DNA of 64,000 nt from Candidatus Altimarinota bacterium (GTDB lineage Bacteria; Patescibacteriota; Gracilibacteria; JBDHUY01), in the NCBI GenBank assembly GCA_039809385.1, contig JBDHUY010000009.1, positions 32,347 to 96,346 on the forward strand, read 5' to 3'. The stretch's first letter is position 1. Each line of letters starts with the position of its first letter. Below the pieces are notes generated by a model that worked only from the letters and a program-made list of their open reading frames with translations, was not told the origin of the DNA and searched no databases. A program made the position numbers and the translations under genes. This document shows, piece by piece, positions 25,001 through 48,973 of this stretch.

Positions 25001-27658
25001 CCGGTGCAATTTCGGGTCGATACGATCGCACCCGACTGCAGCAGTGAATTCCCGCCGTCGGGGCAGTATTACAGTCAAATCATCCTTGAAAACGGCAATT
25101 GTAGCGATAGCGGATCGGGAATCGAAGAGACCGGTATCCAGTTCGGCTATGGAGAAAGTTTCGAGACTCCTTTTACTGATGCAAAATCTTTTCCGAAAGA
25201 GATCTGTAGAGAAGGCGATAGTACCAATTGTTATACGATACTCTCGGATCAGATCGCGCTCCCAAGTGACGATTTCGAAGGAGACAAATATCAAAATTCG
25301 TTCGCGGTTAAGGCACGAGACCGGGTAGGTAACGAAACGTTCGTACCGTTACGGTATAATTTTACGCTCATCGCTCCGTTGATCCGGTATTACGAACTAA
25401 AAGGATCATTACTACGACTGTACGGAACGAATTTCGGACGTAGCGGTATGGCGCGCTTTTATGACGGAACGAAACAAGAACTGGAAAATATGAGAATGCG
25501 CTATAGCAGCAGCGACGGGAAAAAGGTCGAAATTCAGACTACTCGGGATAGCCGTGTGCGATATATCAGGATTCAACGCAATACTGATGACCGTCCCCAG
25601 GAGACCGAAATAAGTCTCTATTTTCCCTTTAGCTTCGTGCATAACGCCGATCAAAGTTTAACACTGCTGCCGAGTGCGGTAACCGCGTTGCCAGGAGATA
25701 CCGTTACACTCATCGCTTCGATGGGACCCGAAACCGCGCAGCACATTTTTGACTGGCAAATTCCCTATATCGATCCGCAAGATCAGAACAAAGGTAAAAT
25801 CAGCGATTCTCCTTTGCCAGAACTGAAACCTGGCAATAATGTTTTTACCTTACAATTAAAAGATAGCATCCCGAGCGGCCAATACCCCGTCGTCGTCAAA
25901 GATATCCTCGGCGGGTCGACGGCACAGATAGACGCAGGTCACCTCTACAGCGTTATATTTTCCGACACATCCAATAACAAAAGACTGGCTCTGCTGCAGA
26001 ACCGTGATATAGATTCTGGAGATTATGGGACCGGAGACATTGGAACTTCTGGCAGTACTTCGATGAGCACCAATACTTACATGAAAACAACCAGCAGCAA
26101 CGGAACGGAAAGCCTTAAAACCACCAGCGAACTTCTCAATGAAGGATATAGTCCGATACTGGGTACGGACGGAAACACCCTCTATTACAACCGCAATACC
26201 GGCGATGTGGTCAGAACTGAAACCACGAATATCAGTACGGATGGAAAAACGACCATTCAACCTAGCTGCGGCAGTAGTAACAATCAGACGTTCGAGACCG
26301 CCCCGACACAGAATTTATGTCTGTCCGGAGCCCCGACAACGGTTACGCTGAACGGTACGACCTGGGGATGGAGTTGTATCGGGACCAACGAGAGCAAAGT
26401 CTCCTGCAGTGCGGCCAAAACCGCAACGACACAAATCACAACCGGACTGAATACAAATGGAAACCAATCCCAATCCAATCAAAATGCGGGTACCAAAGAG
26501 TCTCAGAGAAATACCAACACGAACGGGACAAAAGAAACATGTACGGATATTACCGGATTACTGGCATCCTATTGTACGACAAATCCGACAGATACGGCTT
26601 GCTACACGACGGATATCAATACGATTTGTGCTTCGTTCATAGGCCAAACCGGAACACCTCTTAGTTCTTATTGTTATGCCTATTTCAACAATCCGTCGAG
26701 TATCTGCCCGCTTACTTCGCCGATACGATCGGGAAATAACGGAGAGACCGGAGGTATCCAAAACATCAACACCAACGGCAGCCTCAACCTAAATCAAAAC
26801 AGCGGTACCGGCACAAGCGGAAACGCCAACAACAATAGTTCTCCGCAGAATCAGAATACCAACAGCCCGGGAACAACCATCCCCCAGTCGACCGCAACAG
26901 CGGTAATCACGGTAATCAATCCCGACAGTACCGATACTTCCAAGTATATGAGCTGCTGGGGGCTACCGTGTAACGCGGTGATCGTTACCAGCGCCGCCAA
27001 CGAAATCGTGCAGGATGGTGTGAACTGCGGAGACGCCACGAAACAGCGTACGAGAGCATTGAGCGAAAGCGGTATAACTGGCGATCAGCAAGCAGGCGAA
27101 CCTAACCAGATCTGTCTGTCCGATCTGTATCTGGGCACTGAAAAAGAACTTGCCCAGATCAGCGCGACGTTTGACGGTAGTCCGGATCTGCAGTTTGTCT
27201 TGGAACTGAAAGGCGATCAGGGGCAGGTAGTTACCTATGCAGTGCCAGCCGAAGGGAGTCATCACACTTTTGGAGAAAAGGTTAACTTCACCGGTTTTAA
27301 GATAGAACCTACCATTACGATCACCCGGGGAACCCTGTCGCGCGTACTGATCTCGCTGGACAACCGTACCGACGAATCCGTAACGTTAACGATCAACGAT
27401 ACGCTTGCTTCCAGCCAGACAAATCAGTGTAGTTACATATCGACCGGATATTGTTACCAGATGTGTTATACGACAGTAGAAGCCAACGGCAACGTAACCG
27501 CCCATGTGCGCGGAGATTGCCCGGCAACCGCGGCCGACACCGGACCGATCAGCATCGCCGACAACACCATCTGTCGTCCCGACGATACTTCGGCCGCTAA
27601 CACGCTCAACTGCCAAAAGATCGAACGTTACTGTACCAATTTGTGTCGGGAACACTAA
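22037..27658 (+). CDS. Giant secreted surface protein (Ig-like domains, PKD, CPR-type CG...LC...W.W.C repeats)
   Basis: About 1874 aa with a signal peptide, WDFGDG PKD motif, three NGxCG...WxCxG repeats, GYAWSDTYGWL motif and Asn-rich linkers. Confidence 0.88.
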   Translation: MTIRLPVRKRWKISLLCIMAASLFFLVQNAHNMPAEALISTSVEVGGTPVGIIPVDIGTVPDSGASCDPAPEGAACGTSYCRGSIMCAVICDIPDIPLGNFNPELPELPDPTSNAYRCNAAIQLCEICTAGETGCTTLDNCLSSCQAAPTENIPPFFTTNPVSGQIGSSNPRVTIMIEDPSPSSLIALATWRLQKKISGAWNNTLTFGSITDAINNTRGSAVVVLPGVGEYRFQLVGKDQANNTTSTFSNAFQVVDNPVDTTPPTVTANPTSQTAAGTIFVALTPEDTGGSGLSQARYVMDGSVSLGSGIQFQSTTNISIASAGSHTINWIAQDNAGNIASGQFGPYTVTASTGSDCTLNASIVGPAEGVVSQNLAFAASVSSTGTGCSGSIQHTWDFGDGSTIPAGNNPGVSHVYTSGGNKTLVLRVTQGTSATTATKLVKINATSLNGVCGTAVNQYFSTEPTQNLCEAGNSTKPTALGNGAWSWSCQGLNGGQTATCQSQTTGSGDVTAPSVTFTPNGGSWSKNSQTVTVNVTDTQSNIQAATWQVQQFNGTSWRTVVQQGSMTTGNQNTSQNITLNGIGQYRIYVYVQDSSNNENFVYSLTYDLNTGAQNGSCGSAARTYLDTETKYTGSFCLVGTANPATPAFPANGATTGWTCQGVLGGNNTQCSASRDSATNTIWQGNLHNSAYGQDMGWLLVGNPAGTAYEGMYNGLRIEQNPLLSGGSQYRITGNAYSPYFGIFVLDAATVNVISPQWAVIQGSGRFPSAGINLVTASGNITPALCEGYKNFGLWPANPGQPFAICIDLSTVGTNTPLKMNGYAWSDTYGWLKVADDGGTIQNPPVYDNPVAGSSYQMTTTWNPNLNINGNANQNGNNNINQNTNSPVTGKNPLVTINATPDYVIDASNRWDTSAQAIVSCKPGSGTSCDTASYKIAVFPSNPGSCPQDYALYTIDSPMLVGDNLWVCGAAHTIEQDKSGNFYYGYSTDPVQFRVDTIAPDCSSEFPPSGQYYSQIILENGNCSDSGSGIEETGIQFGYGESFETPFTDAKSFPKEICREGDSTNCYTILSDQIALPSDDFEGDKYQNSFAVKARDRVGNETFVPLRYNFTLIAPLIRYYELKGSLLRLYGTNFGRSGMARFYDGTKQELENMRMRYSSSDGKKVEIQTTRDSRVRYIRIQRNTDDRPQETEISLYFPFSFVHNADQSLTLLPSAVTALPGDTVTLIASMGPETAQHIFDWQIPYIDPQDQNKGKISDSPLPELKPGNNVFTLQLKDSIPSGQYPVVVKDILGGSTAQIDAGHLYSVIFSDTSNNKRLALLQNRDIDSGDYGTGDIGTSGSTSMSTNTYMKTTSSNGTESLKTTSELLNEGYSPILGTDGNTLYYNRNTGDVVRTETTNISTDGKTTIQPSCGSSNNQTFETAPTQNLCLSGAPTTVTLNGTTWGWSCIGTNESKVSCSAAKTATTQITTGLNTNGNQSQSNQNAGTKESQRNTNTNGTKETCTDITGLLASYCTTNPTDTACYTTDINTICASFIGQTGTPLSSYCYAYFNNPSSICPLTSPIRSGNNGETGGIQNINTNGSLNLNQNSGTGTSGNANNNSSPQNQNTNSPGTTIPQSTATAVITVINPDSTDTSKYMSCWGLPCNAVIVTSAANEIVQDGVNCGDATKQRTRALSESGITGDQQAGEPNQICLSDLYLGTEKELAQISATFDGSPDLQFVLELKGDQGQVVTYAVPAEGSHHTFGEKVNFTGFKIEPTITITRGTLSRVLISLDNRTDESVTLTINDTLASSQTNQCSYISTGYCYQMCYTTVEANGNVTAHVRGDCPATAADTGPISIADNTICRPDDTSAANTLNCQKIERYCTNLCREH

Positions 27659-28522: not shown

Positions 28523-30496
28523 ATGCATACGGACCGATCACCTACTTTACAAAAACATCGCGGCAGCATATTTATTTATGTATTGTTTGCCGTGTCACTG
28601 TTTATGCTGACATTTACGTCGATTATCTATTTTTCCAAGCAGAATCTGGCGTATGTGGACAAAGCTATCACGACCCGCGACCTGATCGCCCAAGCAAAAT
28701 CGAATATTGCCGAGATAGTAACCCAGTTCCAGGCCGGAGCACGCAACCAGGCGATTAACAACGTGAGAAAAACCAGCTATGAAGCCTACGAGGAGACCAG
28801 AAACGGTTACGTATACCAGGGCAAAAGCGACGTTATATCGATCAACTGGCACGACTACGACACAGACCTGCGTATGCCCGGCGGCGTGGGAATCGAAAAA
28901 GCGGCCGGGAGTAAGGGGACTCTTTACGCGACCTTGCGGAAAATAGTGCTGGATAATAACGCTACGGTCTTATCCGAAACGTTGGTCATTCCCGACGGAA
29001 CACAGCTGCGAGAAGAAGACTATTGTCTTTTTAAGCCCCGCGACGAAAGCGACCGGATTGCATTCTACACCGAAATAATTCTGTTTTCGGACAGTCCGGA
29101 AGGCTCACGATATACGCTGAGCGCGCTGGCTTACAATAAAAACAAAACCCAGGACTGCTTGCCGGTGAATCCGGATGAGGCAACTACGCCCAACCCAGCC
29201 CGTTTCGCCATGCAAAAACTGTCGGTCGCAACCGAGACCTCTACTGATTTCAACCCGATTGCGACCAGTTCGACGCTTGCCGTCCAAGCCGATGTAGACC
29301 TCACATACCCGACATATAATATCGCGTCCAAATTCGATTTCGAAGATGCGCGCAGCACGTTTGACGGGACAGTATCTTCGTCTCTGAATGAACCGGGCGT
29401 ATCGACCGGGTATTTCGATTTTCTCGACGTGGAAGGCAACGACTGGCAATCGCGCGGTTCGTACAGTTATACTCTTCCTGGGTTTAATCCGGGCACACAG
29501 GAATTCGGAATATTCCCCAACAGCAACTATACCCTGAACCGGGACATACGCGGAGAATTCGATATGCGCGTAACTATGCGCGAGAGTCCGGCTGCGACAC
29601 AAAGTACATCTTCCGACGGAACCGTCTACAACGGAAGCAGCAATATAAGCGGAGAAAACGGGATTTTCGTTCAGAACGGTTCTATCAGTTACAAAGCAGG
29701 TGTGAAGAACGTACAGGTATGTCATACCGTAACCGATCCAGTCACTAAGGTTTCCCGTTGTGAATGCGACGAAAATACCAATATCTATTTATTCTATGAC
29801 ACCTTGAGCGGTCCGCCGACGCAGGTAAAGAGAGATACCGGTTCGGCCTGTACCAACATGCCGACGCTGGCAAGCGTGGGGGGTTCGGCCAAACAGTTCA
29901 AAGCACTGGCAGAATTTCCCAGCGGGGTGGAAGCCAAAGAAGCGAATATCGGACAAGCCCGGAATAAATTCATGCTAAATCTGCGACGGGAAGACGGCAA
30001 CAAACTGCGGGCTTATTTTTGCTCGGCCGGAACGCTCTGCGACACCACCGGCAACGGTTGGATCCTTATTTCCGATATTTCGGATTTTACACTCTCTCCC
30101 GATACGCCGGTTCAGGTCGGTCTCTATAATGATTCTCCCGATGGTGGGGCCAAAGTATACAGTTATGTCCGGATAAATCAGATTCAGGATGAAAATGACG
30201 GCGATGCGATAGCAAAGTATGCTAAAACCTTAGAATTCGGCCGGGATGTATCGATCAAAAAGGTAGTAGTATATGGGTATATCCCCGACGACGGTCTGTT
30301 CGGCTTAAGTCTAAACAATATTTGTTTCGGCGAGCAACCTGAAGGGAAACCGTGCCAAAATAGCAGTCTGGTCGTTACTCCCGAAAACCTGGTTACCGAT
30401 CATCTCGATATTGCGATTAACTTGAAATCGACCAAAGGTGAGTTATCGGCGATTCCGTTTATTCGGAGTATTCAGGTCTTCTACGAACCCTTCTGA
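28523..30496 (+). CDS. PilX-like N-terminus large pilus-associated protein
   Basis: HRG/SIFIYVLFAVSLF class III-like signal followed by a ...AQAKSNIAE helix and a large beta-rich C-terminus. Confidence 0.65.
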   Translation: MHTDRSPTLQKHRGSIFIYVLFAVSLFMLTFTSIIYFSKQNLAYVDKAITTRDLIAQAKSNIAEIVTQFQAGARNQAINNVRKTSYEAYEETRNGYVYQGKSDVISINWHDYDTDLRMPGGVGIEKAAGSKGTLYATLRKIVLDNNATVLSETLVIPDGTQLREEDYCLFKPRDESDRIAFYTEIILFSDSPEGSRYTLSALAYNKNKTQDCLPVNPDEATTPNPARFAMQKLSVATETSTDFNPIATSSTLAVQADVDLTYPTYNIASKFDFEDARSTFDGTVSSSLNEPGVSTGYFDFLDVEGNDWQSRGSYSYTLPGFNPGTQEFGIFPNSNYTLNRDIRGEFDMRVTMRESPAATQSTSSDGTVYNGSSNISGENGIFVQNGSISYKAGVKNVQVCHTVTDPVTKVSRCECDENTNIYLFYDTLSGPPTQVKRDTGSACTNMPTLASVGGSAKQFKALAEFPSGVEAKEANIGQARNKFMLNLRREDGNKLRAYFCSAGTLCDTTGNGWILISDISDFTLSPDTPVQVGLYNDSPDGGAKVYSYVRINQIQDENDGDAIAKYAKTLEFGRDVSIKKVVVYGYIPDDGLFGLSLNNICFGEQPEGKPCQNSSLVVTPENLVTDHLDIAINLKSTKGELSAIPFIRSIQVFYEPF

Positions 30497-32596: not shown

Positions 32597-32626
32597 TGTA
32601 ACCAAACCAAAAGATCCGAGATATAG
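32597..32626 (+). promoter_or_regulatory. Possible ECF-type autoregulatory promoter
   Basis: TGTAACC...CGAGATATAG about 70-100 nt upstream of the ECF gene; resembles the ECF AAC/CGT-type consensus. Confidence 0.35.
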
Positions 32627-32694: not shown

Positions 32695-33285
32695 ATGCAC
32701 GCAAGCGACAAACTGGAACCGGCCCGGGAACAAGAATGGGTAAAAAAAGCCCAAGCCGACGCGTCTGATTTTACACCTTTGTACGAACACTACGTCCCGA
32801 AGATCTATCGCTACTTACGTTTTAAGACCAATAACGATTCGCTGGCAGAAGACCTGACCGCCCAAACATTTTGCGAAGCGCTCGAAAATATCGGAAAATT
32901 TCGCTGGCAAGGGACATCGTTTGGCGCATGGCTCTACCGTATCGCCCATAATCTGCTGGTCGACCACGTACGGGCGCATAACCGCCGGGAACCTCTGAAC
33001 GAGAACGAAGACTACGATGCAAACCAAGATATCGAAAGCGAAGTAAACGAACAATGGTCTTTGGAAAAAGTATACGAAGCGCTGCGCACGCTGCCCGAAA
33101 TTGCGCAACAGGTAGTCAGCTTGCGTGTGATGGAAGATTTATCACACCGGGAGATTGCGGTCATTGTCGGGAAGACCGAAACAAACGTGAAAGTCATCTA
33201 TTCTCGAGCGATTGCCCAACTGAAAGCACGCATCGTTTTTGTGCTGGCCATTGCCGTAATGTATATAACGTTGAACAAGTGGTAA
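32695..33285 (+). CDS. RNA polymerase ECF sigma-70 factor
   Basis: FTPLYEHY, AEDLTAQTF, FGAWLYRIAHNLLVD, LSHREIA, VKVIYSRA. Confidence 0.93.
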   Translation: MHASDKLEPAREQEWVKKAQADASDFTPLYEHYVPKIYRYLRFKTNNDSLAEDLTAQTFCEALENIGKFRWQGTSFGAWLYRIAHNLLVDHVRAHNRREPLNENEDYDANQDIESEVNEQWSLEKVYEALRTLPEIAQQVVSLRVMEDLSHREIAVIVGKTETNVKVIYSRAIAQLKARIVFVLAIAVMYITLNKW

Positions 33286-33391
33286 GCATGGGCACTAGAC
33301 CGAGTCTTCGTGCACCAAAAGCACGTCGGGAAGAACGATGGAACCCGAAAGCTTCACGTGTAGAGGAAGACAACTTGAAAAAAGCGATTAC

Positions 33392-33429
33392 GGGATTCTT
33401 CGTCCCGCCGGGGCGGGACTCAGAATGAC
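33392..33429 (-). repeat. GTCATTCTGAG-type palindromic repeat
   Basis: gggattcttcgtcccgccggggcgggactcagaatgac, between the ECF and A2M genes. Confidence 0.75.
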
Positions 33430-33466
33430 TACACCCTACTCCTAACTCCTAACTTCTCCTCCCATC

Positions 33467-36400
33467 ATGTCGATCAATAAGAAAAACCTGAAACACGACC
33501 TGGAACTGATTACGCAAAAACTACTCGCCGGCGAAGCGATTGACGATACGGACGAAGAAACCCTCAAAGTTCTATCGGCATTGATCCGGAAATCACCCCA
33601 GCATCAGTTATCCCGGGAAGCCAAGCAACATTTGGACAAGATTATTGCCGAGAAGATCCGACAGATGCAGGCAGGAAAAAAGAAAACAGCGCCGAATTCG
33701 CGTTTACCGCTCATAGCTTGGATGCTGAGTCATAAGAGACTGTTGACCGGACTGGCTTCGGGCATGGCCATCGCGGTTATAGGGGTCTTCTCATTTTTTC
33801 TGATGGTCGCGGCCCCCCTTGTCATCGGAAGTAATGTTGATGCCGTTACTAAAAGTATCGCCTACAATGCCCCAATAAAAATTACGTTTAACGCGGCAAT
33901 GAACCGCGAAAAAACGCAACGCTCTTTTCACACCGAGCCGCGTCTCAACGGGAATTTTGCCTGGGATGGAAATACGATGATCTTTACACCGGCCGAAAAA
34001 TTCCAGATCGGTACTCGATATACTATAAAAATTGATGAAAATGCCGAGACCGTCTTTGGCAAGCATCTTGAAAAACCTTATACGCTGAATGTCCTGATCA
34101 AAGGACCGCCCGAAGTTACGTTCAGCGCCCCCCAAGACATCGTGGTCGGACAAGATGCACGCATAGTAATGATGTTTAATCAACCTATGATCTCGCTCAA
34201 AAACATCGATCAAAATTCAGCCGACAATATTCACTTGGAAATAATGCCTAGGACCGAAGGAACTATTCGCTGGATCGATACCGCTTCATTCGAATTTGTG
34301 CCCAAAAACGGTCTGATGCTTTCGACCAACTATACCATTCAGATAAAGCAAGGCAGCCAGAGTGCCGACGGCGGTAGCACTGAACAGGATTATATGTTCG
34401 GCTTTTCGACTATCTCGCCTAAAGTTGTTTCCCTCTCTCCGGCCAGCGGCTATAATCTGGCCGGCCCGTCCACCAAGCTGGCCATTACGTTTAATCAGCC
34501 GGTAGATCTGGCCTCGCTCAAAGAAAACTTTCAGTCAAAACCCGATATAGCACCACAATTCCAATATGATGCCAAAGACCGCAATACGGTACAAATAACC
34601 ACAGGCAGACCGCTGGAACTGGCTAAGACGTACGAAATGATCATCGGCAAGAATCTGCGAGGAGCAGAAGGCAATTTTAGTCTGGGAGAAGATACGAAAT
34701 GGAGTATCGTCACAGTCGGAGCGCCGAAGCTGGTACTTAGCGATCCGGCCAACCAAAGTACGAACGCTTCGGAGACCGGCATAACGCTGACTTTTAGCAA
34801 CCCGATCGACTACAAAAGTTTCGATGGGAAATACACGATCACGCCTCAGGCGAAGATCGAACTGAGCGAGCCGTATTTTTATGGTGACGAGAACAATGAG
34901 AACACAGTGCTCAATTTTGCCGCCGAACTGATGTACGATACTCAATATACTCTGACGCTGCAGCCGGGCGGAAAAGACATTTTTGGCCAGACGATTGAAC
35001 AACCGATTACCGTAAAATTCAAAACAAAAGACCGCGATCCATTCTTCGATATTGCCAAAAAAGATGTCTACAACCTTTTCAGCGCTTACCAGAAACCGGT
35101 CTACCCGATCAAAACGATCAATATCGCCAGACTCGATGCGTTCTTCTGTCGCATGGACCAGGCCACTTTTTTGAAACGTACCCAGAGCGACGAATCGGTC
35201 AACCCGACCGAATGTATCGAACGCAAAAACTGGTCGGTGGACACGGCGGGAGACAAAAACAAAACCGTGACCAAGTTTGTCGACTTCGAAAGCATCTTGG
35301 GCAAGCGTCTGGAACCGGGTATTTACTATTTTTCACTCTCCTCGGACAAACCGTTCAACGACTGGGAAAAACGCAAATACGTGACGTTTTTTGTTTCAAA
35401 AACGGCGCTGACCATGAAGGCTGACGATGACAAAGTGCTGGTGTGGGCGACCGACCTCGCCACTGGACAACCGGTCGCAGACATGACAATCGAGATTCAT
35501 GAAACACCGACCTACAGCCCGGATGAAACGGCCATAAAACAGATTTTACGCAGCGGAAAAACTGACAAAAACGGCCTTTTCGAAGGCAAACTCCAGTCCA
35601 AAGGCAGTCTGTTTATTATCGGCAAAAAAGGAGACGACATAGCTCTCTTGTCGCGCTGGTGGAATCAGGGTATCGCAGCATACGATTTCGGTTTCACTCC
35701 GGACTATAACGAAGGCGCCTATTTTTCCTACCTCTATACGGAACGGCCGATCTACCGCCCCGAACAGAAAGTCTACTTCAAAGGGATCGTACGGGTGGAC
35801 AACGATGCCAAATTCGAACTGCCCGATATAAAAGAAGCAAAAGTAGAGATCGTGGATGCAGTTGGCACCAAAGTATACGAGCAAAAAATGCCCCTGAGCA
35901 AAACCGGCACGTTCAACGGCGAGTTTACTTTGGACAAGAGCGCAGCTACCGGCCAGTACCAAATCAATATGGTGCTGGGTGAACGCTATTTCTCGACCGA
36001 GTTCTTTGTGGAAGAATACCGCAAACCCGAATTCAGCGTTTCGATTGCTACAGACAAAGATCAATACAGTGATGGCGATACGTTGACCGCAACGCTTAAA
36101 GGCGCCTATTATTTTGGCGGAGCACTCAAAAATAAAAACGTTACTTGGACGCTTTCCGGTTCTGATGCCTATATCCCGGAATACGAAGGCGAATGGTACA
36201 GTTTTGCGGATAACGACGGGTTCTGGTATTGCTTCGACGGCTGTAATGCCTCGCAGTCACAGATAACGTCCCAAACCGGCACGCTCAACGAACAAGGAGA
36301 ACTCAAGATTTCGATACCATTGAGCCTGAAAGATAAAAAAATCAACCAGCTCTACACACTGGAAGCCACGATCGAGGACGACTCGCACCAGACAGTGTCA

Positions 36401-39400
36401 AACCGCAACAGTTTTGTGGTGAATCAGGGCAGCTACAATCTGGGTATCCGCGCCGACGGCTACGCGTTTAGCAAAGGCGAAAAGGGAACTTTCAAGACCA
36501 TACTGCTCGATCTGGAACGAAAGCCGGTCGCGAACCGCAAATTTACGGCAAGCCTGTTTGAACGTACATGGAAGCAGGTCGAAAAGAAAAACATCGACGG
36601 AGAATTCTATAAAGAATTTGAGCCCCAAGATACGCTGATAAAAACCCAAGAAATAACCAGCGACGCCGACGGATCATCTTCGTTCAAGTTCGATTTCGCC
36701 ACAGGAGGAGAAATGGTTGTAAGGGTCCAAATACAGGACGACAAGGGTCGCAAAAACATCGCGTCGACCAGTGTATATGTTTCCGACGATAACTTTATCT
36801 CATGGTTTAGCGGCAATGACTCGCGTATCAATTTGATTCCGGATAAGCAAGAATATGCCGTAGGGGAACGAGCCAAAGTTCTGATCCGGGCACCTTTTGA
36901 GAATTCCAAAGCGCTCATAACCTATGAACGCCGCGGCATCTTACATTCGGAAATCATGGATATCCCCGGAACCTCCCAGCTGCTTGAAATACCGATCACC
37001 GAAAATTTCGCGCCCAATATGTACGTTTCGGCGGTATTGGTAAAAGGCGGCGGCGAAAGCCGCGCTATGCTCTCGACCGAATTGGAAATAAAAAACAAGC
37101 AACTGAACACTCCCGATTTGGCACCGGAGACAACTACCTCTTTATCGCAGGAGATTGCGAACGTAAAACAACGTCTGAAAGAGGCAAAAGATACCGCCGG
37201 CAAACCCGAGTTTCGGGTCGGCTATGCACTCCTGCGGGTACCGCCCGTCTCGCACGAGATGAAAGTCGTCCTTACACCCGACAAAGACCGCTATAAGCCG
37301 GGAGAAACTGTTACTCTTACGGTAAAAACTACCAACAACGATGCCAAGCCGGTTGCAGCCGAGGTATCCGTGGCGGTGGTTGACCAGGCCGTGTTGGCTC
37401 TGAAAACCAGGGAACAAGATATCCTAAATGCTTTTTATGGAAAAAAGGACCTGGGCGTAGATACCTCCTCCTCGCTGGCCATATTTACCGATACGGTAGA
37501 TGTCAAAAGTCGATCGAAAGGAGGGGGAGGCGGAGAATTGCCGCCAAATATTCGCGGGAACTTTAAAGATACCGCCTATTTTCAGGCCAGCGTCACAACC
37601 GACGCTAGAAGCGGAGAAGGCAAAATAACGTTTACACTACCGGACAATCTTACCACCTGGAAAGCTACGGGAGTTGCCGTAAACGATCAGACCATGGTAG
37701 GCGTCGGCAATGTCGAATTTCTATCGAGTAAAGATCTGTTGATCCGTCCGGTGCTGCCCCGTTTCGTGAGACTTCAGGACGAAGTCAATGTGGAAGCGAT
37801 TGTGCATAACGGCCAAAAGAATGCCGATACCGTTTTGACTCGTTTGGATATCGTCGAAGGGGATGTTGAGCTCGTCGGCGCAGCCACACAGAGCAAAGAT
37901 ATCGCGTCCGACGGCGACGAGAAAATGACTTGGAAATTACGGGTCAAAAACGGCACGCACCTGGTTTTGCAATTTACAGCGTCCGGCAAAGGACAGGAAG
38001 ACGGTGTCCGCGTAACCTTGCCAATCCTGGGGTATGCTACGCCCGAAGTCGTGGCAACCTCCGGCGAAGTAACCGATCCGCGCAGTGAGGTTATCGAATT
38101 TGGCAATCAGGTAGTCCCCTCGCTGGGCCAGGTATCAGTGACCGTCTATGCATCGCTGTTGACCAATCTGCACCAAGGTCTCGAAGCGCTGATACGTTAT
38201 CCGTATGGTTGTGCCGAACAGACTATGAGCGCACTGCTGGGAACGATCAGCGTCAAAAACATCTTCGCGAATTTACAAAAACCACTGCCCCGCTTACCGA
38301 TCGAAAAAGGAACAATTTTCGAAAACGAGAAACTGATAGCCGAAACCGATCCGCAAAAACAAGTGGACGGGATGCTTCAGATAGGCCTGCAAAAGATCTA
38401 TTCGTTCCAGCGCGCCGACGGCGGTTTCGGGTACTGGCAGGACAGCCGCGATTCTAACGCACACCTAAGCGCCTATCTGTTACTGGGTTTCAGCGAAATC
38501 GAAAAGAGCGGATACCAAATCGATCCTTCGGCACGCGACCGCGGTCTCGATTTCCTGCGTAATTACGTTCGTAATTATTCAATTCTGGCGACCACGTTGA
38601 AAGACGGACAGTATGTGGAAACCGATCAAGTCGACCGTTTCAAAGCTAACGAACGCGCCATTCTTCTCTATGTGCTCTCGCGTTACCAGCAGGGAGATCT
38701 GGGACTGAGTAACAATTTATATGAGAAACGTGACAGCTTGAATCTCTACGCGAAGGGGTACCTGCTGGACACACTGAGAGAGCTGAAACAGACCGATAAG
38801 GTAACCACATTGAAAAACGAACTGCTGGCCAATTTGGTAGAAGACGTCGCCGCCCGTACCGCGCATTTCGAAGAAAAAAATCCGGATAGCTACGGTATGA
38901 ATACGGACACGCGCACCACCGCAATCATCCTGCGTGGGCTGCTGGCAACCGATCCGGACAATCCGACCGTTCCCAAAATCGTACGCTATCTGGCACGGCA
39001 GAAAAATTATTTTAGAGACATCAATACCCAGGAGATCAGTTATACGCTCTTCGCGTTGAACGACTATCTCAAATTGCGGCAGGAAAACAGCAACACCAGT
39101 GTCGGTGCCAAAGTCAGTCGTAATGGAGAAACGGTGATGAACGAAATCTTAAACGAAACAAATCCGCAAAAAACCGTAACGTTGCCGGTATCCGAATTTG
39201 TCGACCATTCGAATGAAATCGTCTTTGAAAACAGCGGATCAAAGGGCAGTTATTTCTACGATATCGTAGCGCGTTATTTTATTCCGCTCGCAGAGATCGA
39301 GCCGCGCAGCAACGGGTTTAGCATCAAACGTGAGTATTTCACCTTTTCCGACGACAAGATGACCAAGCCGGTACAGAGCGCACGGGTAGGTGACACGCTG

Positions 39401-39772
39401 CGAGGGAAATTGACAATTGTAGTACCTAAAGCTCGTAATAACGTCGTGATTGAAGCGCACTTGCCGGCCGGTCTGGAAGCGGTGAACTTTCATCTGGATA
39501 CGGCACAGCAAAGTACCAACCCGCAAGATCGGCAGCTCTACGGAGACCGCTACTGGGAATCGGGGTTGTGGCACTTTAACCATATCGAAATCCGCGATGA
39601 TCGTATCGCCCTGTTTGCCGATCAGCTGCCGGCGGGCGTCTACGAATATACGTATGTGGTTCAGGGAACTTCGTCCGGTATCTTTGCCAATCCGCCGACG
39701 TTGGGCTATGAGATGTATTTCCCGGAAATTTTCGGGAGAAGCCGGGGGGAATTGTTTACGGTAACGGAATAA
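33467..39772 (+). CDS. Membrane-anchored alpha-2-macroglobulin family protein with Big_5-like Ig repeats
   Basis: YTERPIYRP, VEEYRKPEF, LPDNLTTW, LPRF, thioester YPYGCAEQ (CAEQ at 38210-38221), FQRADGGFGYW, EMYFPEIFGRS. N-terminal cytoplasmic domain, one TM and four Ig-like repeats (ITFN motifs). Confidence 0.93.
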   Translation: MSINKKNLKHDLELITQKLLAGEAIDDTDEETLKVLSALIRKSPQHQLSREAKQHLDKIIAEKIRQMQAGKKKTAPNSRLPLIAWMLSHKRLLTGLASGMAIAVIGVFSFFLMVAAPLVIGSNVDAVTKSIAYNAPIKITFNAAMNREKTQRSFHTEPRLNGNFAWDGNTMIFTPAEKFQIGTRYTIKIDENAETVFGKHLEKPYTLNVLIKGPPEVTFSAPQDIVVGQDARIVMMFNQPMISLKNIDQNSADNIHLEIMPRTEGTIRWIDTASFEFVPKNGLMLSTNYTIQIKQGSQSADGGSTEQDYMFGFSTISPKVVSLSPASGYNLAGPSTKLAITFNQPVDLASLKENFQSKPDIAPQFQYDAKDRNTVQITTGRPLELAKTYEMIIGKNLRGAEGNFSLGEDTKWSIVTVGAPKLVLSDPANQSTNASETGITLTFSNPIDYKSFDGKYTITPQAKIELSEPYFYGDENNENTVLNFAAELMYDTQYTLTLQPGGKDIFGQTIEQPITVKFKTKDRDPFFDIAKKDVYNLFSAYQKPVYPIKTINIARLDAFFCRMDQATFLKRTQSDESVNPTECIERKNWSVDTAGDKNKTVTKFVDFESILGKRLEPGIYYFSLSSDKPFNDWEKRKYVTFFVSKTALTMKADDDKVLVWATDLATGQPVADMTIEIHETPTYSPDETAIKQILRSGKTDKNGLFEGKLQSKGSLFIIGKKGDDIALLSRWWNQGIAAYDFGFTPDYNEGAYFSYLYTERPIYRPEQKVYFKGIVRVDNDAKFELPDIKEAKVEIVDAVGTKVYEQKMPLSKTGTFNGEFTLDKSAATGQYQINMVLGERYFSTEFFVEEYRKPEFSVSIATDKDQYSDGDTLTATLKGAYYFGGALKNKNVTWTLSGSDAYIPEYEGEWYSFADNDGFWYCFDGCNASQSQITSQTGTLNEQGELKISIPLSLKDKKINQLYTLEATIEDDSHQTVSNRNSFVVNQGSYNLGIRADGYAFSKGEKGTFKTILLDLERKPVANRKFTASLFERTWKQVEKKNIDGEFYKEFEPQDTLIKTQEITSDADGSSSFKFDFATGGEMVVRVQIQDDKGRKNIASTSVYVSDDNFISWFSGNDSRINLIPDKQEYAVGERAKVLIRAPFENSKALITYERRGILHSEIMDIPGTSQLLEIPITENFAPNMYVSAVLVKGGGESRAMLSTELEIKNKQLNTPDLAPETTTSLSQEIANVKQRLKEAKDTAGKPEFRVGYALLRVPPVSHEMKVVLTPDKDRYKPGETVTLTVKTTNNDAKPVAAEVSVAVVDQAVLALKTREQDILNAFYGKKDLGVDTSSSLAIFTDTVDVKSRSKGGGGGELPPNIRGNFKDTAYFQASVTTDARSGEGKITFTLPDNLTTWKATGVAVNDQTMVGVGNVEFLSSKDLLIRPVLPRFVRLQDEVNVEAIVHNGQKNADTVLTRLDIVEGDVELVGAATQSKDIASDGDEKMTWKLRVKNGTHLVLQFTASGKGQEDGVRVTLPILGYATPEVVATSGEVTDPRSEVIEFGNQVVPSLGQVSVTVYASLLTNLHQGLEALIRYPYGCAEQTMSALLGTISVKNIFANLQKPLPRLPIEKGTIFENEKLIAETDPQKQVDGMLQIGLQKIYSFQRADGGFGYWQDSRDSNAHLSAYLLLGFSEIEKSGYQIDPSARDRGLDFLRNYVRNYSILATTLKDGQYVETDQVDRFKANERAILLYVLSRYQQGDLGLSNNLYEKRDSLNLYAKGYLLDTLRELKQTDKVTTLKNELLANLVEDVAARTAHFEEKNPDSYGMNTDTRTTAIILRGLLATDPDNPTVPKIVRYLARQKNYFRDINTQEISYTLFALNDYLKLRQENSNTSVGAKVSRNGETVMNEILNETNPQKTVTLPVSEFVDHSNEIVFENSGSKGSYFYDIVARYFIPLAEIEPRSNGFSIKREYFTFSDDKMTKPVQSARVGDTLRGKLTIVVPKARNNVVIEAHLPAGLEAVNFHLDTAQQSTNPQDRQLYGDRYWESGLWHFNHIEIRDDRIALFADQLPAGVYEYTYVVQGTSSGIFANPPTLGYEMYFPEIFGRSRGELFTVTE

Positions 39773-39821
39773 ACTATGCTATAATGATTCGATGTTATGT
39801 CACATAATCGCGAACTACTTT

Positions 39822-40895
39822 ATGAAAAAAATGCCCCACCAAGCTCCGGTTGAATTTTCATCTATGGAAAACGTAGACTTGAAAGACCCTTACGCACGGC
39901 TGATCGAAACGGTATTTGGCAACAATTCTCATGTTGAAGATTTTATGCTTCATGAGATCAGACAATGGTACAACGAGGGTGACAAAGATTCCAAGCGAAC
40001 AAAACTGGCAACATGGATGGCTGGAGTACTGAGTGATGCTGACTATGGAATAATGATGGGGTTACTAGAAACACTGCAATCAGACCAAACACAACAGTGG
40101 GAAACAACGATTCATACTGATAGAATACAGAGTATTCTGAGGCAATTACAATCCCAACAGGCAGTAAAGCGTCTGGTATACAAAACTCCCGAAACGGGCC
40201 CTCAACTGATAGATATAGCTAAAGAAGAAAGAGATATACTAGAAAAGATCGCGAAAAATTCTACTACGTCACCTGAATTTAGAAAACTACTGACAGCTCT
40301 GGCGATTCATATTGATGGAATGTCGAACAGTAAGGACAAGTTTGATATTATTTGCAGAAAAACAAGCAGCGGCTCGTTATCAAAAATGTCGCAGTCTGAA
40401 CGGTATGACATGTTGCTATTACTATGCTGCTGGCCTGATCCGCAGGCAATACGACAATTAGGTGCATCTCAATCGCACATAGAAAGCCTGATTCTACAAT
40501 TGGAAGATACAGGACAACAAGGTCGTGTCAGGGAATATTATGGCATCGCTCCCCACGAACAGGTTAATAATACCAAACGGGATAGAATTTTAGGCGAAGC
40601 TGAAGAAAATCTGCGGGCTCTTCACGATGGCACCTATAAAGAAAAACAATTGAATAAAAAACTAGCCGAGACGAATAAAATAAAAGCAAAAATTTACAAA
40701 TTATTGTTTCGGTCAGAAGGTATTTTAGAAGGTATCGAAACAGGTCTCACTACGTTGGAACAACTTATTAAGGATATAGAAAGGACGGAAGGTGACAACA
40801 ATGAGATGATTCCTTCCGAATTTCTAACGAGATTCGAAGAGCTCATACAACGTATGCAAAATTTGGTAGCTACGAAAAAAGCAAAAGCCGCATAG
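39822..40895 (+). CDS. Hypothetical helical/coiled-coil protein
   Basis: About 358-aa ORF preceded by TGCTATAAT; no recognisable motif. Confidence 0.7.
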   Translation: MKKMPHQAPVEFSSMENVDLKDPYARLIETVFGNNSHVEDFMLHEIRQWYNEGDKDSKRTKLATWMAGVLSDADYGIMMGLLETLQSDQTQQWETTIHTDRIQSILRQLQSQQAVKRLVYKTPETGPQLIDIAKEERDILEKIAKNSTTSPEFRKLLTALAIHIDGMSNSKDKFDIICRKTSSGSLSKMSQSERYDMLLLLCCWPDPQAIRQLGASQSHIESLILQLEDTGQQGRVREYYGIAPHEQVNNTKRDRILGEAEENLRALHDGTYKEKQLNKKLAETNKIKAKIYKLLFRSEGILEGIETGLTTLEQLIKDIERTEGDNNEMIPSEFLTRFEELIQRMQNLVATKKAKAA

Positions 40896-42606: not shown

Positions 42607-44973
42607 ATGAAAATATCCATCATCTGCGGCGGCCCCTCGTTGGAAAGAGGGATTTCACTCAATTCGGCCCGGTCGGTGCTGGACCATCTCCAGCGTACCG
42701 GGATCGAGATAGTCCCCTTTTACCTGGACCATAGCAAAAACGCTTATGCCATTTCGACGGCACAGCTATACTCCAACACACCGTCCGATTTTGATTTTAA
42801 ACTTCGACTGACTGCCAAACCGTTGAATAAAGCCGGTTTTGTCAAAGCGCTCAAAGAGACCGATCTGTGTTTTCCGGCAATGCATGGTTTTTTCGGAGAA
42901 GACGGCGGCATTCAGCATTTTCTCGAACAGAACCGGATTCCGTTCGTCGGTTCCGGGAGCGTCGCTTGTAAAAAAGCTTTCGACAAATTCGCGGCAAACG
43001 AATATATTCGCTCGCAGGGCTTTTTTACGCTTCCGTCCGCACTGCTGAAAATTTACCATTCCGACCATAAAAAAATTCTAAGCGATTTCTTTCGCAAACA
43101 CCGCGTCACGCGGGCTGTTGTCAAACCGGCCAGCGGGGGCTCGAGTATCGGAGTATTTTCGGTATCTACCGTGGAGGAGGCTTTGGAAAAGGCCCAGCTT
43201 CTTTTTTCCAAACGCATGGATACCCGTCTGGTCGTAGAACCGTTCGCTACCGGCACCGAATTTACGGTGATCGTCCTGGAGAATCGTTTTGGCATGCCGG
43301 TAGCGCTCACCCCGACCGAGATTGAAACCGACTACACCGAGCACCAGATTTTCGATTTTCGAAAAAAATATCTGCCGACCCGACAGGTGATCTGGCACTG
43401 CCCGCCGCGTTTTGACAATCGTACTATAGACATTATTCAAACCCAGGCCGAACAATTGTTCAAACTCCTGGGTATGCGAGATTTCGGCCGGTTCGACGGT
43501 TGGGTATTACCGGACGGGAAGGTGTGGTTTTGCGATTTCAACATGATCAGCGGCATGGAACAAAACAGTTTTTTGTTTCAACAGGCCTCCCGGATCGGCA
43601 TGACACACCAAAACGTCCTGAACCATATCGTAGAAAACGCCTGCCGCCGCTATGGTATCGTTTTTCCGCAATCCGTGAAAAATAAGCATGGAAGACGCAA
43701 GGAAGTATATGTGCTTTTCGGCGGCGGAAATTCGGAACGACAGGTATCTCTCATGAGCGGCAGCAACGTTTGGCTGAAGCTGAGAAACTCCGCAAAATAC
43801 AAACCGATTCCGCATCTGCTGGACCGGCACGGAACGGTATGGAAACTCCCCTATCAGCTCATCCTGAATCATACGGTGGAAGAGATTACCGAAAACTGTC
43901 TCGGCTATGAGAGCGCCAAACAGCGGCTGGATGATTTCGAAAACCGGGCCCGGCTACGCCTGGGGCTTTGGGAAGGCAAAGACGAACAGGAATTCTTCGC
44001 TCCTCAAAAGATGGATATGGAGACCTTCCTGTCTCACGCTCCCTTTGTATTTTTGGCGCTGCACGGCGGCAAGGGCGAAAACGGCGAGATGCAAGCGATA
44101 CTGGAAAGGAAGAAGATCGGATTTAACGGTTCCGGATCGGCAACATCACGACTTTGCATGGATAAATGGGAAACGTCGCGACACATAGAAACACTCGGTA
44201 TTCCTGGAGTTTCCGCCATTGCCGGAGAACTGCTGAAAACTGCTGCATTTATCGATCTGAGCGTCGGAGAGGTCGCGAATTTATGGCATCGTCTAAAACG
44301 AGATCTCGCAACCAAGACGTTGATCATAAAACCCCGGGCGGACGGATGCTCTACCGGGGTTGTCCGAATACAAACCGCCGCCGATCTGCTCGCTTACCAA
44401 AGACTATTGCAGATAAAAGCCCCTTTTGCGCCGCGCCATACGTTTCGGAATCAATCCGAAATGATCGAAATGCCGACGGTTCGACCTGAAGAACTGGTAT
44501 GCGAACGGTTTATCGAAACAGACGGACTGCGGGTAAGGGGCCATACACTGAAAGAAACAAATCGCTCGGGCTGGATCGAAGTGACCGTGGGAGTACTCGA
44601 AGAAAAAGGCATAATCCGGGCGCTGCATCCCAGTATAACGGTGGCGGAAGGCGAAGTTTTGAGTGTCGAAGAAAAATTCCAAGGAGGGACCGGCGTCAAC
44701 ATTACCCCCCCGCCCAACACAATCGTTGCCCCCAAAGCACTGGCAAAAGCGATGCACAACGTGGGGCTGATTGCAAAAAAGATGGGCATCGGCGGCTATG
44801 CGCGCATTGACGCTTTTCTGGAGCGAATAACCGGAGATCTGCTCGTCATCGAGATCAACACGCTTCCGGCCCTGACCCCTTCCACGGTTCTGTACCATCA
44901 AGGCTTGGCTGAGAAAAAAACGCTCTTCCCGGGAGATTTCATTGAACAGTTAATCGAGAATAAAGGATATTGA
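42607..44973 (+). CDS. ddl: D-alanine--D-alanine ligase, tandem two-domain form
   Basis: Two complete Ddl units: GGPSLERGISLNS/HGFFGEDG/KPASGGSSIG/RFDG and GGGNSERQVSLMS/LHGGKGENG/KPRADGCSTG/ARID...EINTLP. Confidence 0.88.
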   Translation: MKISIICGGPSLERGISLNSARSVLDHLQRTGIEIVPFYLDHSKNAYAISTAQLYSNTPSDFDFKLRLTAKPLNKAGFVKALKETDLCFPAMHGFFGEDGGIQHFLEQNRIPFVGSGSVACKKAFDKFAANEYIRSQGFFTLPSALLKIYHSDHKKILSDFFRKHRVTRAVVKPASGGSSIGVFSVSTVEEALEKAQLLFSKRMDTRLVVEPFATGTEFTVIVLENRFGMPVALTPTEIETDYTEHQIFDFRKKYLPTRQVIWHCPPRFDNRTIDIIQTQAEQLFKLLGMRDFGRFDGWVLPDGKVWFCDFNMISGMEQNSFLFQQASRIGMTHQNVLNHIVENACRRYGIVFPQSVKNKHGRRKEVYVLFGGGNSERQVSLMSGSNVWLKLRNSAKYKPIPHLLDRHGTVWKLPYQLILNHTVEEITENCLGYESAKQRLDDFENRARLRLGLWEGKDEQEFFAPQKMDMETFLSHAPFVFLALHGGKGENGEMQAILERKKIGFNGSGSATSRLCMDKWETSRHIETLGIPGVSAIAGELLKTAAFIDLSVGEVANLWHRLKRDLATKTLIIKPRADGCSTGVVRIQTAADLLAYQRLLQIKAPFAPRHTFRNQSEMIEMPTVRPEELVCERFIETDGLRVRGHTLKETNRSGWIEVTVGVLEEKGIIRALHPSITVAEGEVLSVEEKFQGGTGVNITPPPNTIVAPKALAKAMHNVGLIAKKMGIGGYARIDAFLERITGDLLVIEINTLPALTPSTVLYHQGLAEKKTLFPGDFIEQLIENKGY

Positions 44974-45111: not shown

Positions 45112-46107
45112 TTACGATTCGTTCATCCACTGCCGTACCTCCGGTACATTCGGAAAGGCACCGCTGCGTTCGTCAAAATAGAGCAGTCCGAGATCTGCAT
45201 CGATAAAATGCTGATCGGTCACATTCTCGGGAACCACCAGAAGTCCCTTAACCAGAATCGCCTCGCCCTGCATGACACGGTAGATATTCATATAATGCCG
45301 CAATTCGGACACAGCAATCGCAAGAGTGTCGACCGTCACGGTCAGACGCACTTCGATCAAATAGTGAACAGCTCCGTCCTGCAGTACGGCATCGATCACG
45401 TGTCGCGGACGGCCCCGGTAAAAGAGACGCAAGTCTTGGATAATCTTTCCGCCGAAGGGCTGCTGCTGCTCGAGAATTTCAAGTACGCGGTCGCGCAGAT
45501 CCACCGTGCGATTTACCAACGTATCGAAGGCTTCGGCTGATTCCATGCCCGCATCAATGGCTTCCTGTAAATTAGCTATACCGCTTATTTGTGAAGCAGC
45601 CGGAGATTCCGGCGCCGATGCGGTTGTTTCATCCCTTGTTCGGGACGAAAAAGGTTTTTTGGAACGAAAATGACTGAATTGTTGCGATTTTAAGCGTTCC
45701 GGTGACGTCGTTTTAGAAGTATTTGATGCTGTGCCTTCTTCGGTGGTCTGCGCTTGTTCTTCCTGAACTTGGCGTCGAACTTTGGCTTTCACATCCTGAG
45801 GACGGGCTTTTTCCACTTTCCACCAGCTGCGATTCCAAAAAATGGAAGCCAAGTCGAGCAGAAATTGTAAATTGGTGACCAGCGTCGCAATGATAAATAC
45901 CGCCAGACCGTAGACAACTACATTATTGGCCAGCAGGGCCAGAAAAACGACAAGAAAAGTTCCAAACAACTTCCAAACCGATTCATTTTGTAAATCTTTG
46001 CGAAAAACCGCTACCATAACAATCGCAGCTGCCACCAAAAAAGACAGCAATGCTAAAACGAGAACCAGTTGATCGCGCTGAGTGAAAAAAATCAGGAAAT
46101 CGTTCAT
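45112..46107 (-). CDS. Membrane protein with a possible C-terminal PD-(D/E)xK nuclease-like domain
   Basis: About 3 N-terminal TM helices; IDAVLQDGAVHYLIEVR...ELRHY...GLLVVP. Confidence 0.6.
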   Translation of the reverse strand: MNDFLIFFTQRDQLVLVLALLSFLVAAAIVMVAVFRKDLQNESVWKLFGTFLVVFLALLANNVVVYGLAVFIIATLVTNLQFLLDLASIFWNRSWWKVEKARPQDVKAKVRRQVQEEQAQTTEEGTASNTSKTTSPERLKSQQFSHFRSKKPFSSRTRDETTASAPESPAASQISGIANLQEAIDAGMESAEAFDTLVNRTVDLRDRVLEILEQQQPFGGKIIQDLRLFYRGRPRHVIDAVLQDGAVHYLIEVRLTVTVDTLAIAVSELRHYMNIYRVMQGEAILVKGLLVVPENVTDQHFIDADLGLLYFDERSGAFPNVPEVRQWMNES

Positions 46108-46398
46108 CGGAATAAAGGTAAAGTTACATCTTATACTCCTTAACTTTCAATCTGATACTATAGCACTACGAAGCATTTCATAATAACTACCCTATAGCAA
46201 GATTATTTCCAGCTTCGTAGTATTAGTTCCTAATTTTTTCTCAAATAAATTTGGCAATTGACCTGATGTTGTTATACTTACTTTAGTTCTATTTTTTTCA
46301 GTAGTTGTCTTATGGATAGGTGAATAATATTGGGTCGAATACAAATCATTTTTGACATTGAACCTATTCATATTATATAAATATCCTCCATACATTGT

Positions 46399-46878
46399 AT
46401 GGAAATTACTCGCACTCTGGAATTCGATGCTGGTCACAGAATTCCAAATCATAGCAGTAAGTGTCGTAATATTCACGGACACCGGTTTAAATGTGAGCTA
46501 ACACTGGAAGGAGACCTAATAGAAACCTGTGGGGTATCGAATGAAGGTATGGTTCTAGACTTTGCAGATATCAAAAGCATTGCCAACAATCTCATCGACA
46601 ATGAATTAGATCATTCATTTATCGCGTTCGAAAAGGACGAAAGAGTTGTCCAATTTATCGAAAGCGAAAAGCTGAAACTGGTCAAGATGCCGTCTATACC
46701 GACCGCAGAGAACATAGCGAAGTACCTCTTCGATCGCCTGGAGCCTCTATTCAAAGATCGGTACGAGAACGAATTACGATTAAAACAAATCAAGCTATAC
46801 GAGACGCCTAACGCATATGTTGTTTACCAAAGAAACATTTATAATGGTTCCCTAAAATCGGACAGTGGGATAAGGTAA
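46399..46878 (+). CDS. queD: 6-carboxy-5,6,7,8-tetrahydropterin synthase QueD; last 12 aa derived from the IS3 end
   Basis: EFDAGHRIPNHSSKCRNIHGH, GMVLDF, LDH, PTAENIA, LYETP. Confidence 0.93.
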   Translation: MEITRTLEFDAGHRIPNHSSKCRNIHGHRFKCELTLEGDLIETCGVSNEGMVLDFADIKSIANNLIDNELDHSFIAFEKDERVVQFIESEKLKLVKMPSIPTAENIAKYLFDRLEPLFKDRYENELRLKQIKLYETPNAYVVYQRNIYNGSLKSDSGIR

Positions 46879-46907
46879 AATAAGTTAAACTTTACCCCCC
46901 TGAAAAT

Positions 46908-48021: not shown

Positions 48022-48030
48022 TTTCCCTAA

Positions 48031-48924: not shown

Positions 48925-48973
48925 TAAAAAATTGTCTGGACAAAGGGGACCACTATAATTTAATGTTGACTTT

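Follow-up and report, generated by a model that had tools for sequence, protein, structure and literature searches.

The stretch of DNA analysed here, 64,000 nucleotides (nt) from a Candidatus Altimarinota bacterium (Patescibacteriota, class Gracilibacteria) and referred to below as the window, corresponds to G000:C9:32347–96346 in a genome assembly of 1.87 Mb in 26 contigs; the genomes of relatives measure ~0.7–2 Mb. Within it, a gene for an extracytoplasmic function (ECF) sigma factor, P0001, is directly followed on the same strand by a gene for an alpha-2-macroglobulin (A2M) of 2,101 amino acids (aa). A first-pass annotation of the window had singled out this pair and proposed that the A2M is fused to an anti-sigma-type domain for the sigma factor encoded upstream of it. 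Both open reading frames (ORFs) are present as described, 181 nt apart (Table 1), and contigs from other public runs span the junction without differences (X2 record 4, 32993–33925; X3 record 8, 32848–33730). The A2M gene occurs in a single copy in the genome. The annotation was also right that pbpC is not adjacent: of 38 ORFs scanned in the window (the pair's five neighbours plus 33 with a length of 150 aa or more), none encodes a Transgly or Transpeptidase domain, and the two class A penicillin-binding protein (PBP) genes of the genome are on contigs other than that of the A2M (C12 and C1).

P0001 is an ECF (group 4) sigma-70 factor of 196 aa that contains regions 2 and 4 only. It matches Sigma70_r2 (PF04542, 2.2e-18), Sigma70_r4_2 (PF08281, 8.3e-13) and TIGR02937 (92.9 bits, with a cut-off of 42.9). 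Its best NCBIfam model is TIGR02952, the BldN family, at 138.9 bits and thus under the curated cut-off of 206.45, and its best solved chain is 6dxo_A (E = 5.4e-24), from what we take to be the RsbN–BldN entry. The string 6DXO was not found in the accessible text of PMC6101532. The odd hydrophobic tail that had been noticed at the C-terminus of the sigma factor is real: 14–17 hydrophobic residues follow region 4, and the tail is kept in all five of the closest orthologues (P0084–P0088) as well as in seven further relatives (P0091–P0097).

The ectodomain of the downstream protein is that of a type I bacterial A2M on every domain criterion. Matches to the A2M domains PF07703, PF01835, PF11974, PF00207 and PF17973 all exceed their cut-offs, and the CAEQ thioester motif (residues 1582–1585, nt 38210–38221) lies within the PF07678 match, in keeping with the earlier description of four Ig-like repeats followed by a full A2M with an intact thioester. 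The outer limits given for the Big_5 repeats in Table 1 are estimates based on the best stretch (residues 419–520) and the end of the transmembrane (TM) helix. With no hydrophobic stretch ahead of residue 92 and no cysteine ahead of residue 561, the protein has neither a signal peptide nor a lipobox, as the annotation had stated. Several A2Ms of the class carry a Hint/intein-like domain (PT-HINT, Vint) between the bait-region and A2M domains (L066:37-5310 from G007, L067:195-5711 from G060, P0011 and P0015).

The 91 residues that precede the TM helix are charged (18 K/R, 11 D/E), and structure modelling gives them three helices (residues 5–21, 30–42 and 50–73) with a mean predicted local distance difference test score (pLDDT) of 65.7; the charged, helical N-terminus of ~90 aa and single TM helix of the earlier description are thus recovered. 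Nearly all of the 76 proteins found with residues 1–560 begin with a short signal or a lipobox, and among them a TM start near residue 90–120 is common only to P0004, P0005, P0007 and P0008. An exhaustive phmmer search with residues 1–125 against 1.84 billion representatives yielded P0005 as its only genuine match, over residues 11–125 (E = 4.2e-17). The A2M is 44 and 43% identical over 140 residues to P0004 and P0005, and this similarity at the protein level establishes that the N-terminus is coding and conserved; in the TM stretch, the pattern G.F.FF.MVAAP.VIGSN is invariant in the three orthologues. A scan of the contigs of relatives with the single protein returned seven loci, all distant Big_5 relatives and none from its own clade. 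P0079 and P0080 were discarded as repeat proteins (11 and 6 stretches) rather than relatives of the N-terminus. A metagenome scan with A1 hit one locus, L040, by chance, within a gene resembling an M50 (RseP-type) protease by eye.

Table 1. Coordinates of the sigma factor–A2M locus within the window
Feature	Position	Strand	Details
Candidate ECF-type autoregulated promoter, TGTAACC-N12-CCGAGATA	32597–32623	+	72 nt 5′ of sigma start codon
ECF sigma factor gene (P0001)	32695–33285	+	196 aa; Pfam, NCBIfam and PDB matches
Hydrophobic C-terminal tail of sigma (KARIVFVLAIAVMYITLNKW)	33226–33282	+	Residues 178–196
Sigma–A2M spacer	33286–33466	+	181 nt
A2M gene	33467–39772	+	2,101 aa; Pfam
Proposed anti-sigma domain	33467–33739	+	A2M residues 1–91
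Single TM helix	33740–33829	+	About residues 92–121; hydropathy scan
Four Big_5 Ig-like repeats (stalk)	33830–35032	+	PF13205, four stretches, E = 4.9e-39
bMG3 and MG2	35393–36007	+	PF11974, residues 643–743; PF01835, residues 755–847
Bait-region domain (A2M_BRD)	36830–37402	+	PF07703, residues 1122–1312, E = 5.3e-23
A2M domain	37571–37834	+	PF00207, residues 1369–1456
Thioester domain (TED_complement)	38159–38557	+	PF07678, residues 1565–1697
bMG10	39314–39727	+	PF17973, residues 1950–2087, E = 1.8e-30
Orphan ORF (P0003)	39792–40895		367 aa; begins 19 nt past A2M stop codon

The N-terminal extension and the upstream sigma gene go together across relatives. Our census of the class covers 43 A2M genes, made up of an unbiased set of 35 from a search of 61 relatives with residues 1–560, in which the N-terminus was disregarded, and a guided set of eight from an N-terminal profile search of 401 class genomes. 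Seven weak matches, improbable as A2Ms because their frames were short or TGA-rich, were excluded before counting. A hidden Markov model (HMM) of the sigma alignment (A2) served to identify sigma genes, at E values up to 1e-5 in ORFs of at least 90 aa, with a Pfam check. Where the TM helix starts no earlier than residue 55, an ECF gene lies directly upstream in eight of nine A2M genes, and where it starts before residue 40, a sigma gene is upstream in none of 34 (1.2–2.8 kb examined; 370 nt in G015), figures that describe a pattern and not a probability because the genomes are related and non-independent. The unbiased set alone gives 3/3 with the extension versus 0/32 without it. The eight sigma-linked A2Ms are those of the window (TM start at residue 92), of G320, G340, G207, G306 and G266 (77–88), of G060 (64) and of G007 (~71), the large proteins of the last two being A2Ms by Pfam; the two genes are 3–24 nt apart in family f35 and overlap in G007. 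A sigma-like stretch in G035:C8, within a 1,003-aa frame three genes 5′ of an A2M with a short N-terminus, is not adjacent and was not counted. The first-pass annotation had named, as the observation that would speak against its proposal, that orthologues with the extension generally lack an ECF neighbour; the opposite is seen.

The arrangement occurs in four families of the sampled genomes (f1, f7, f27 and f35). In a phylogenetic tree of the sigma factors, the A2M-linked sigmas of f35 form one clade (support 97/92) and that of the window falls elsewhere, in a weak grouping (67/61) with sigmas that also bear a hydrophobic tail. The well-supported branches require at least two origins of the pairing with A2M; the sigmas of G007 and G060 are on long branches and their placement is unsure. 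That the arrangement is found in four families and arose at least twice points to selection and not to accident.

We also examined what else is encoded beside sigma factors of this group, using the best 30 loci of a class-wide search with the sigma profile. Six of the seven rows of that profile are among the eight loci with A2M partners, and the seventh, G093, is also among the best 30 and has a non-A2M partner. A same-strand gene at position +1, the product of which has its first TM helix at residues 60–106, is present in 28 of the 30 loci (gap of −66 to +182 nt); at L087 the +1 ORF has no helix at the hydropathy threshold, and L098 has no +1 ORF. Eight loci (window, G207, G340, G306, G320, G392, G266 and G376) have an A2M as this +1 protein, and the other partners, of 239 to more than 500 aa, have other ectodomains, one of them DKNYY. 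Given that 28 of the best 30 loci share this layout, the A2M occupies the membrane-partner position of the sigma group. By gene order and hydropathy the A2M has the layout of a membrane anti-sigma factor: encoded beside an ECF gene, N-in and single-pass. Of three further small ECF genes in the same genome, two likewise precede genes for membrane proteins.

A hydrophobic tail is present on the sigma factors of 13 of the best 30 loci (among L079 and L087–L100), all of which fall in the part of the tree that holds the sigma of the window (weak support, 67/61), and 11 of the 12 other tailed-sigma loci have a +1 single-pass partner. The tail is below the standard length of a TM helix; it might pack on the invariant TM helix of the partner or dip into the membrane.

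The N-terminus of the A2M resembles those of the stand-alone partners in sequence. A profile of its own clade picks out the proteins paired with the G093 and G100 sigmas (E = 2.8e-6 and 2.1e-5, TM helix included), and when the N-terminal profile A3 was restricted to longer proteins it returned three, all of them stand-alone partners. Conversely, an HMM built from the N-termini of 11 non-A2M partners (72 aa, no TM helix) and scanned against the first 120 residues of 3,007 ORFs of the genome ranks the A2M first (E = 0.0053; runner-up, 0.053). Alignment by hhalign of the f35 A2M N-termini with the partners gives E = 1.6e-5 and a probability of 79%. Homology to the stand-alone partners is weak but reciprocal, and stronger for f35 than for the window's own clade.

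We carried out the complex modelling that the first-pass annotation had suggested, pairing the sigma factor (alignment A2) with A2M residues 1–92 (alignment A3). The predicted complex passes its controls, with scores of 0.66, 0.68 and 0.68 compared with 0.02 for the best of three controls; the mark applied to such scores is met by 58 of 80 solved complexes and by 2 of 110 mismatched pairs, a calibration that holds only roughly here because we used our own alignments. The runs have at least 52% of contacts in common, with a partner pLDDT of 60–61. Confident contacts join partner residues 32–71 to sigma residues 23–64 (region 2) and 123–180 (region 4), helix 3 presenting a face of A52, K53, H55, L56, I59, I60, K63, I64 and M67, and the interface includes five of the seven invariant residues of positions 32–71. 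The first helix makes no confident contact. The prediction supports, short of demonstrating, binding of the sigma factor by the N-terminus across regions 2 and 4.

Synteny, partner position, reciprocal profile similarity and the predicted complex together support the proposed fusion of an A2M to an anti-sigma-type domain for the upstream ECF sigma factor, and a sigma factor paired with an A2M that carries a cognate domain of this type is a well-supported, real and recurrent architecture. We consider it quite probable that the N-terminus of the A2M is the cognate anti-sigma domain, and probable that the two genes constitute a module of ECF sigma and membrane anti-sigma factor, the latter being itself a type I thioester A2M.

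We acknowledge that a number of observations weigh against this interpretation. The 125 N-terminal residues returned two chance-level rows from Pfam at E values up to 10 and one chance-level row from NCBIfam, which included no anti-sigma model. Among the sequences of all PDB chains, profile A3 retrieved no anti-sigma chain at E values up to 10; Foldseek with the N-terminal model found nothing at E values up to 0.001; and the 50 rows of a VIA wide fold search included no anti-sigma chain, the best Z, 6.6, being at noise level for helical models. These fold searches are uninformative because the query is a 92-residue helical model with a pLDDT of 65.7. The hhalign comparison of the own-clade profile with the partners (E = 0.0016, 64 collinear columns) has a probability of just 16%. 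The pass of the complex prediction, besides its rough calibration, may lean on solved sigma/anti-sigma complexes. The census, drawn from related genomes, also holds one exception, G368, in which a shorter extension occurs with dnaJ upstream and no upstream sigma gene. Finally, the sigma and A2M genes of the window are separated by a 181-nt spacer with a hairpin, compared with 3–24 nt in f35. Separately, zf-HC2 and RseA_N gave no match at E values up to 10, the HxxxCxxC motif is absent and residues 1–560 contain no cysteine; the N-terminus lacks the hallmarks of a Class I anti-sigma domain of the zf-HC2 (RsrA–ChrR–RsiW) type.

Regulation by the sigma factor of its own locus is suggested by the promoter motif. 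By eye, TTTGTAA(C/T) followed after 13–16 nt by C(C/T)G(T/A) is found upstream of the sigma gene in seven of ten loci (window, L021, L024, L025, L029, L033 and L041); for L026 its presence is doubtful, and none was seen in L042 and L065. In f35 it immediately follows the upstream gene's stop codon; in G266 that gene is of the PBP1C type by Pfam. The exact motif, with 15 specified bases, has two copies in the 1.87-Mb genome (window 32597 and C6:34783), compared with a chance expectation of ~0.01 such pairs as estimated from base counts without shuffling. The second copy is 57 nt 5′ of a gene for a 416-aa lipoprotein (G000:C6:34783-36090; L070:1784-3091) with an LTGC lipobox and a weak match to PsbP_2 (E = 5e-4), and from the shared motif this gene is likely to be a second member of the sigma regulon. 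We presume a resemblance of the motif to the sigma-X and sigma-W promoters of Bacillus (TGTAAC / CGAC). Between the two genes, two overlapping GC-rich hairpins at 33393–33420 share GTCCCGC and are not followed by a T-run; the spacer matches no Rfam family and folds no better than shuffled sequences (z = −0.53). No terminator-like site was found on the + strand of the spacer, and read-through into the A2M gene is therefore plausible.

In the mechanism that we propose, the A2M would be inserted N-in, with three cytoplasmic helices, one TM helix, and the Ig-like repeats and trap outside. The cytoplasmic helices would hold the upstream-encoded sigma factor through sigma-2 and sigma-4, much as RsbN holds BldN. 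The sigma factor would drive its own promoter and, through read-through, the A2M gene, so that free sigma would make A2M and the A2M would titrate sigma again. Foreign proteases would destroy or shed the ectodomain near the membrane, an M50 site-2 protease (a gene for one lies at C8:35182–36330) would cut the stub, and the sigma factor would be freed, with spent traps replaced to match the level of proteolytic attack. We propose only tentatively, at somewhat less than an even chance, that ectodomain proteolysis is the releasing signal. Cleavage of the bait itself, which the first-pass annotation had put forward beside protease trapping, is doubtful as the releasing step, by analogy with characterized A2Ms: in the accessible portion of PMC5764988, Sa-A2M cut at the bait yields products of 102 and 77 kDa, and MagD fragments remain associated. 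Bait cleavage here would leave ~1,200 extracellular residues and hence no substrate for a site-2 protease, which speaks against release at that step. As bait cleavage appears insufficient, destruction or shedding of the ectodomain followed by M50 cleavage is favoured. It is possible, rather than probable, that the A2M ectodomain is a true sensor, with protease attack leading to shedding, shedding to a site-2 cut of the TM helix, and the freed sigma factor to renewed induction of the trap; if so, the f35 sigma would share a unit with the peptidoglycan synthase PBP1C. In a bolder version, the tail of the sigma factor could pack against the invariant TM helix of the A2M, and one intramembrane cut could free both.

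The main rival to this release model is a plain product-feedback loop, in which the N-terminus would be an anti-sigma domain that receives no external signal: one sigma factor would be held per A2M, trap density would be fixed, and release would come by turnover or dilution. The evidence for binding and autoregulation fits such a loop equally well, the data show no triggered release, and the large N-terminal product that remains after bait cleavage (PMC5764988, in the portion available) is in line with it. We nevertheless regard it as unlikely, given that 22 of the 30 sigma loci have partners with non-A2M ectodomains, the usual pattern of sensor diversity, and that the genome retains a site-2 protease. 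Single-pass anti-sigma factors such as RseA, RsiW and RsiV are, moreover, generally signal-responsive.

Rather less probable is a reading without any anti-sigma function, in which the sigma factor merely regulates or adjoins the A2M gene, the N-terminus is a signal-anchor leader or has some other role, and the sigma factor is controlled by, for example, its own tail. This would account for an N-terminus without a family or fold match, for the 181-nt spacer and for a conserved sigma tail that is otherwise unexplained, and C-terminal extensions of ECF sigma factors typically accompany the absence of anti-sigma factors (PMC7826278, in the text available). It does not account for the co-variation of the extension with an upstream sigma gene (8/9 versus 0/34), for an A2M in the partner position of the sigma group, or for a predicted complex that passes its controls; tailed sigmas, too, have a +1 single-pass partner in 11 of the 12 loci other than that of the window. 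An artefact, with the true start at Met86 and a short signal anchor, or with an assembly error or chance adjacency, is very improbable: the ATG at 33467 has no Shine–Dalgarno-like sequence and Met86 immediately precedes the TM helix, but residues 1–90 are conserved as protein in P0004 and P0005, the f35 extension begins 3–24 nt past the sigma stop codon and so leaves no space for another reading, and contigs of other runs span the junction without differences.

The closest known system to the sigma–A2M module is BldN–RsbN of Streptomyces. RsbN spans the membrane once and represents a three-helix class of anti-sigma factor in its own right, with homologues only in Streptomyces, according to the portion of PMC6101532 available. 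The BldN family supplies the best NCBIfam model and 6dxo_A the best chain for P0001. As far as the same portion goes, both systems have an N-in single-pass partner with ~90–117 cytoplasmic residues and a large ectodomain, and both have three helices of which the long third lies on sigma-2, in a domain that also contacts sigma-4 (here as modelled and predicted). They differ in that P0001 scores under the family cut-off (138.9 bits versus 206.45) and has a hydrophobic C-terminal tail, that the PDB chain search found no sequence similarity of the A2M N-terminus to RsbN, that helix 1 here lacks a confident contact in the prediction, and that a complete A2M takes the place of what is, in the accessible text of PMC6101532, an RsbN ectodomain of unknown function. 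By outline and predicted contacts, the N-terminus may work like an RsbN-type domain, which is a statement about likeness and not membership of that class.

The ectodomain can be compared with the type I A2Ms ECAM/YfhM of E. coli and Sa-A2M of Salmonella, with which it shares the CXEQ motif, bait region, MG domains, TED and bMG10, whereas here a lipoprotein signal or cleavable signal peptide is absent, the anchor is an N-in TM helix preceded by 91 cytoplasmic residues, four Big_5 repeats stand at the N-terminal side, an ECF gene lies upstream and pbpC is not a neighbour. The ECAM/YfhM and Sa-A2M genes adjoin pbpC (PMC5764988, accessible portion), and the f35 pair likewise comes after a gene whose product has Transgly, Transpeptidase and BiPBP_C domains. 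A PBP gene adjoins the A2M gene in many relatives (L041 from G266, L025, L029, L039, L011, L052 and L063). The neighbour in G266 (L041:493-2970) is of the PBP1C type by its Transgly, Transpeptidase and BiPBP_C domains, the others being identified from sequence by eye; the gene order in f35 is pbpC, sigma, A2M.

RseA, RsiW and RsiV are membrane anti-sigma factors that are released through regulated intramembrane proteolysis. The locus shares with them the order of sigma before anti-sigma, the N-in single-pass topology and an M50 site-2 protease in the genome, and differs in the absence of an HxxxCxxC zinc motif and of zf-HC2 or RseA_N matches, in a far larger ectodomain (~1,980 residues) that is itself a protease substrate and trap, and in that no site-1 protease was identified here.

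The role and regulation of bacterial A2Ms are largely a matter of hypothesis, with periplasmic defence together with PBP1C the suggestion made in the available portion of PMC5764988. Our search of the literature on macroglobulins with anti-sigma factors, ECF sigma factors or Patescibacteria found no description of such a fusion, and macroglobulins are absent from the text and one supplement of the ECF reclassification (PMC7826278), the other supplements of which may list such contexts. A trap physically joined to a transcription switch would provide a direct link from proteolytic attack at the surface to gene expression, in a lineage with genomes of ~1–2 Mb in which few regulators are retained. 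If the release model is correct, these ultra-small Patescibacteria have a self-renewing, damage-triggered anti-protease response that was assembled at least twice independently. The findings also suggest that RsbN-like three-helix anti-sigma domains exist beyond Streptomyces and are portable across diverse ectodomains.

Immediately downstream of the A2M gene, the orphan ORF P0003 falls in no Pfam or NCBIfam family, and a search of 60 relatives with it as a query gave no match; it may or may not share the A2M transcript and is left out of the proposed system. Elsewhere in the window are three large ORFs with little or no family assignment, at 4579–7857 (1,092 aa), 22022–27658 (1,878 aa) and 28523–30496 (657 aa), of which only the 1,878-aa ORF has a match, a single PKD_4 domain. 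An ORF of 788 aa at 42607–44973 has two copies each of the N- and C-terminal domains of D-Ala-D-Ala ligase and looks like a tandem Ddl fusion. The region 46000–58700 has a GC content of 0.41–0.43 compared with ~0.47–0.49 and begins with two transposase genes (rve, 47119–48021; DDE_Tnp_1, 48395–48916). It encodes a 7-deazapurine-type set (PTPS, GTP cyclohydrolase I, a radical SAM protein and a QueC-like protein) together with a carbamoyltransferase, a PIG-L deacetylase, an MFS transporter and a GT2 glycosyltransferase. The region is possibly an acquired island devoted to a modified nucleoside or small metabolite.

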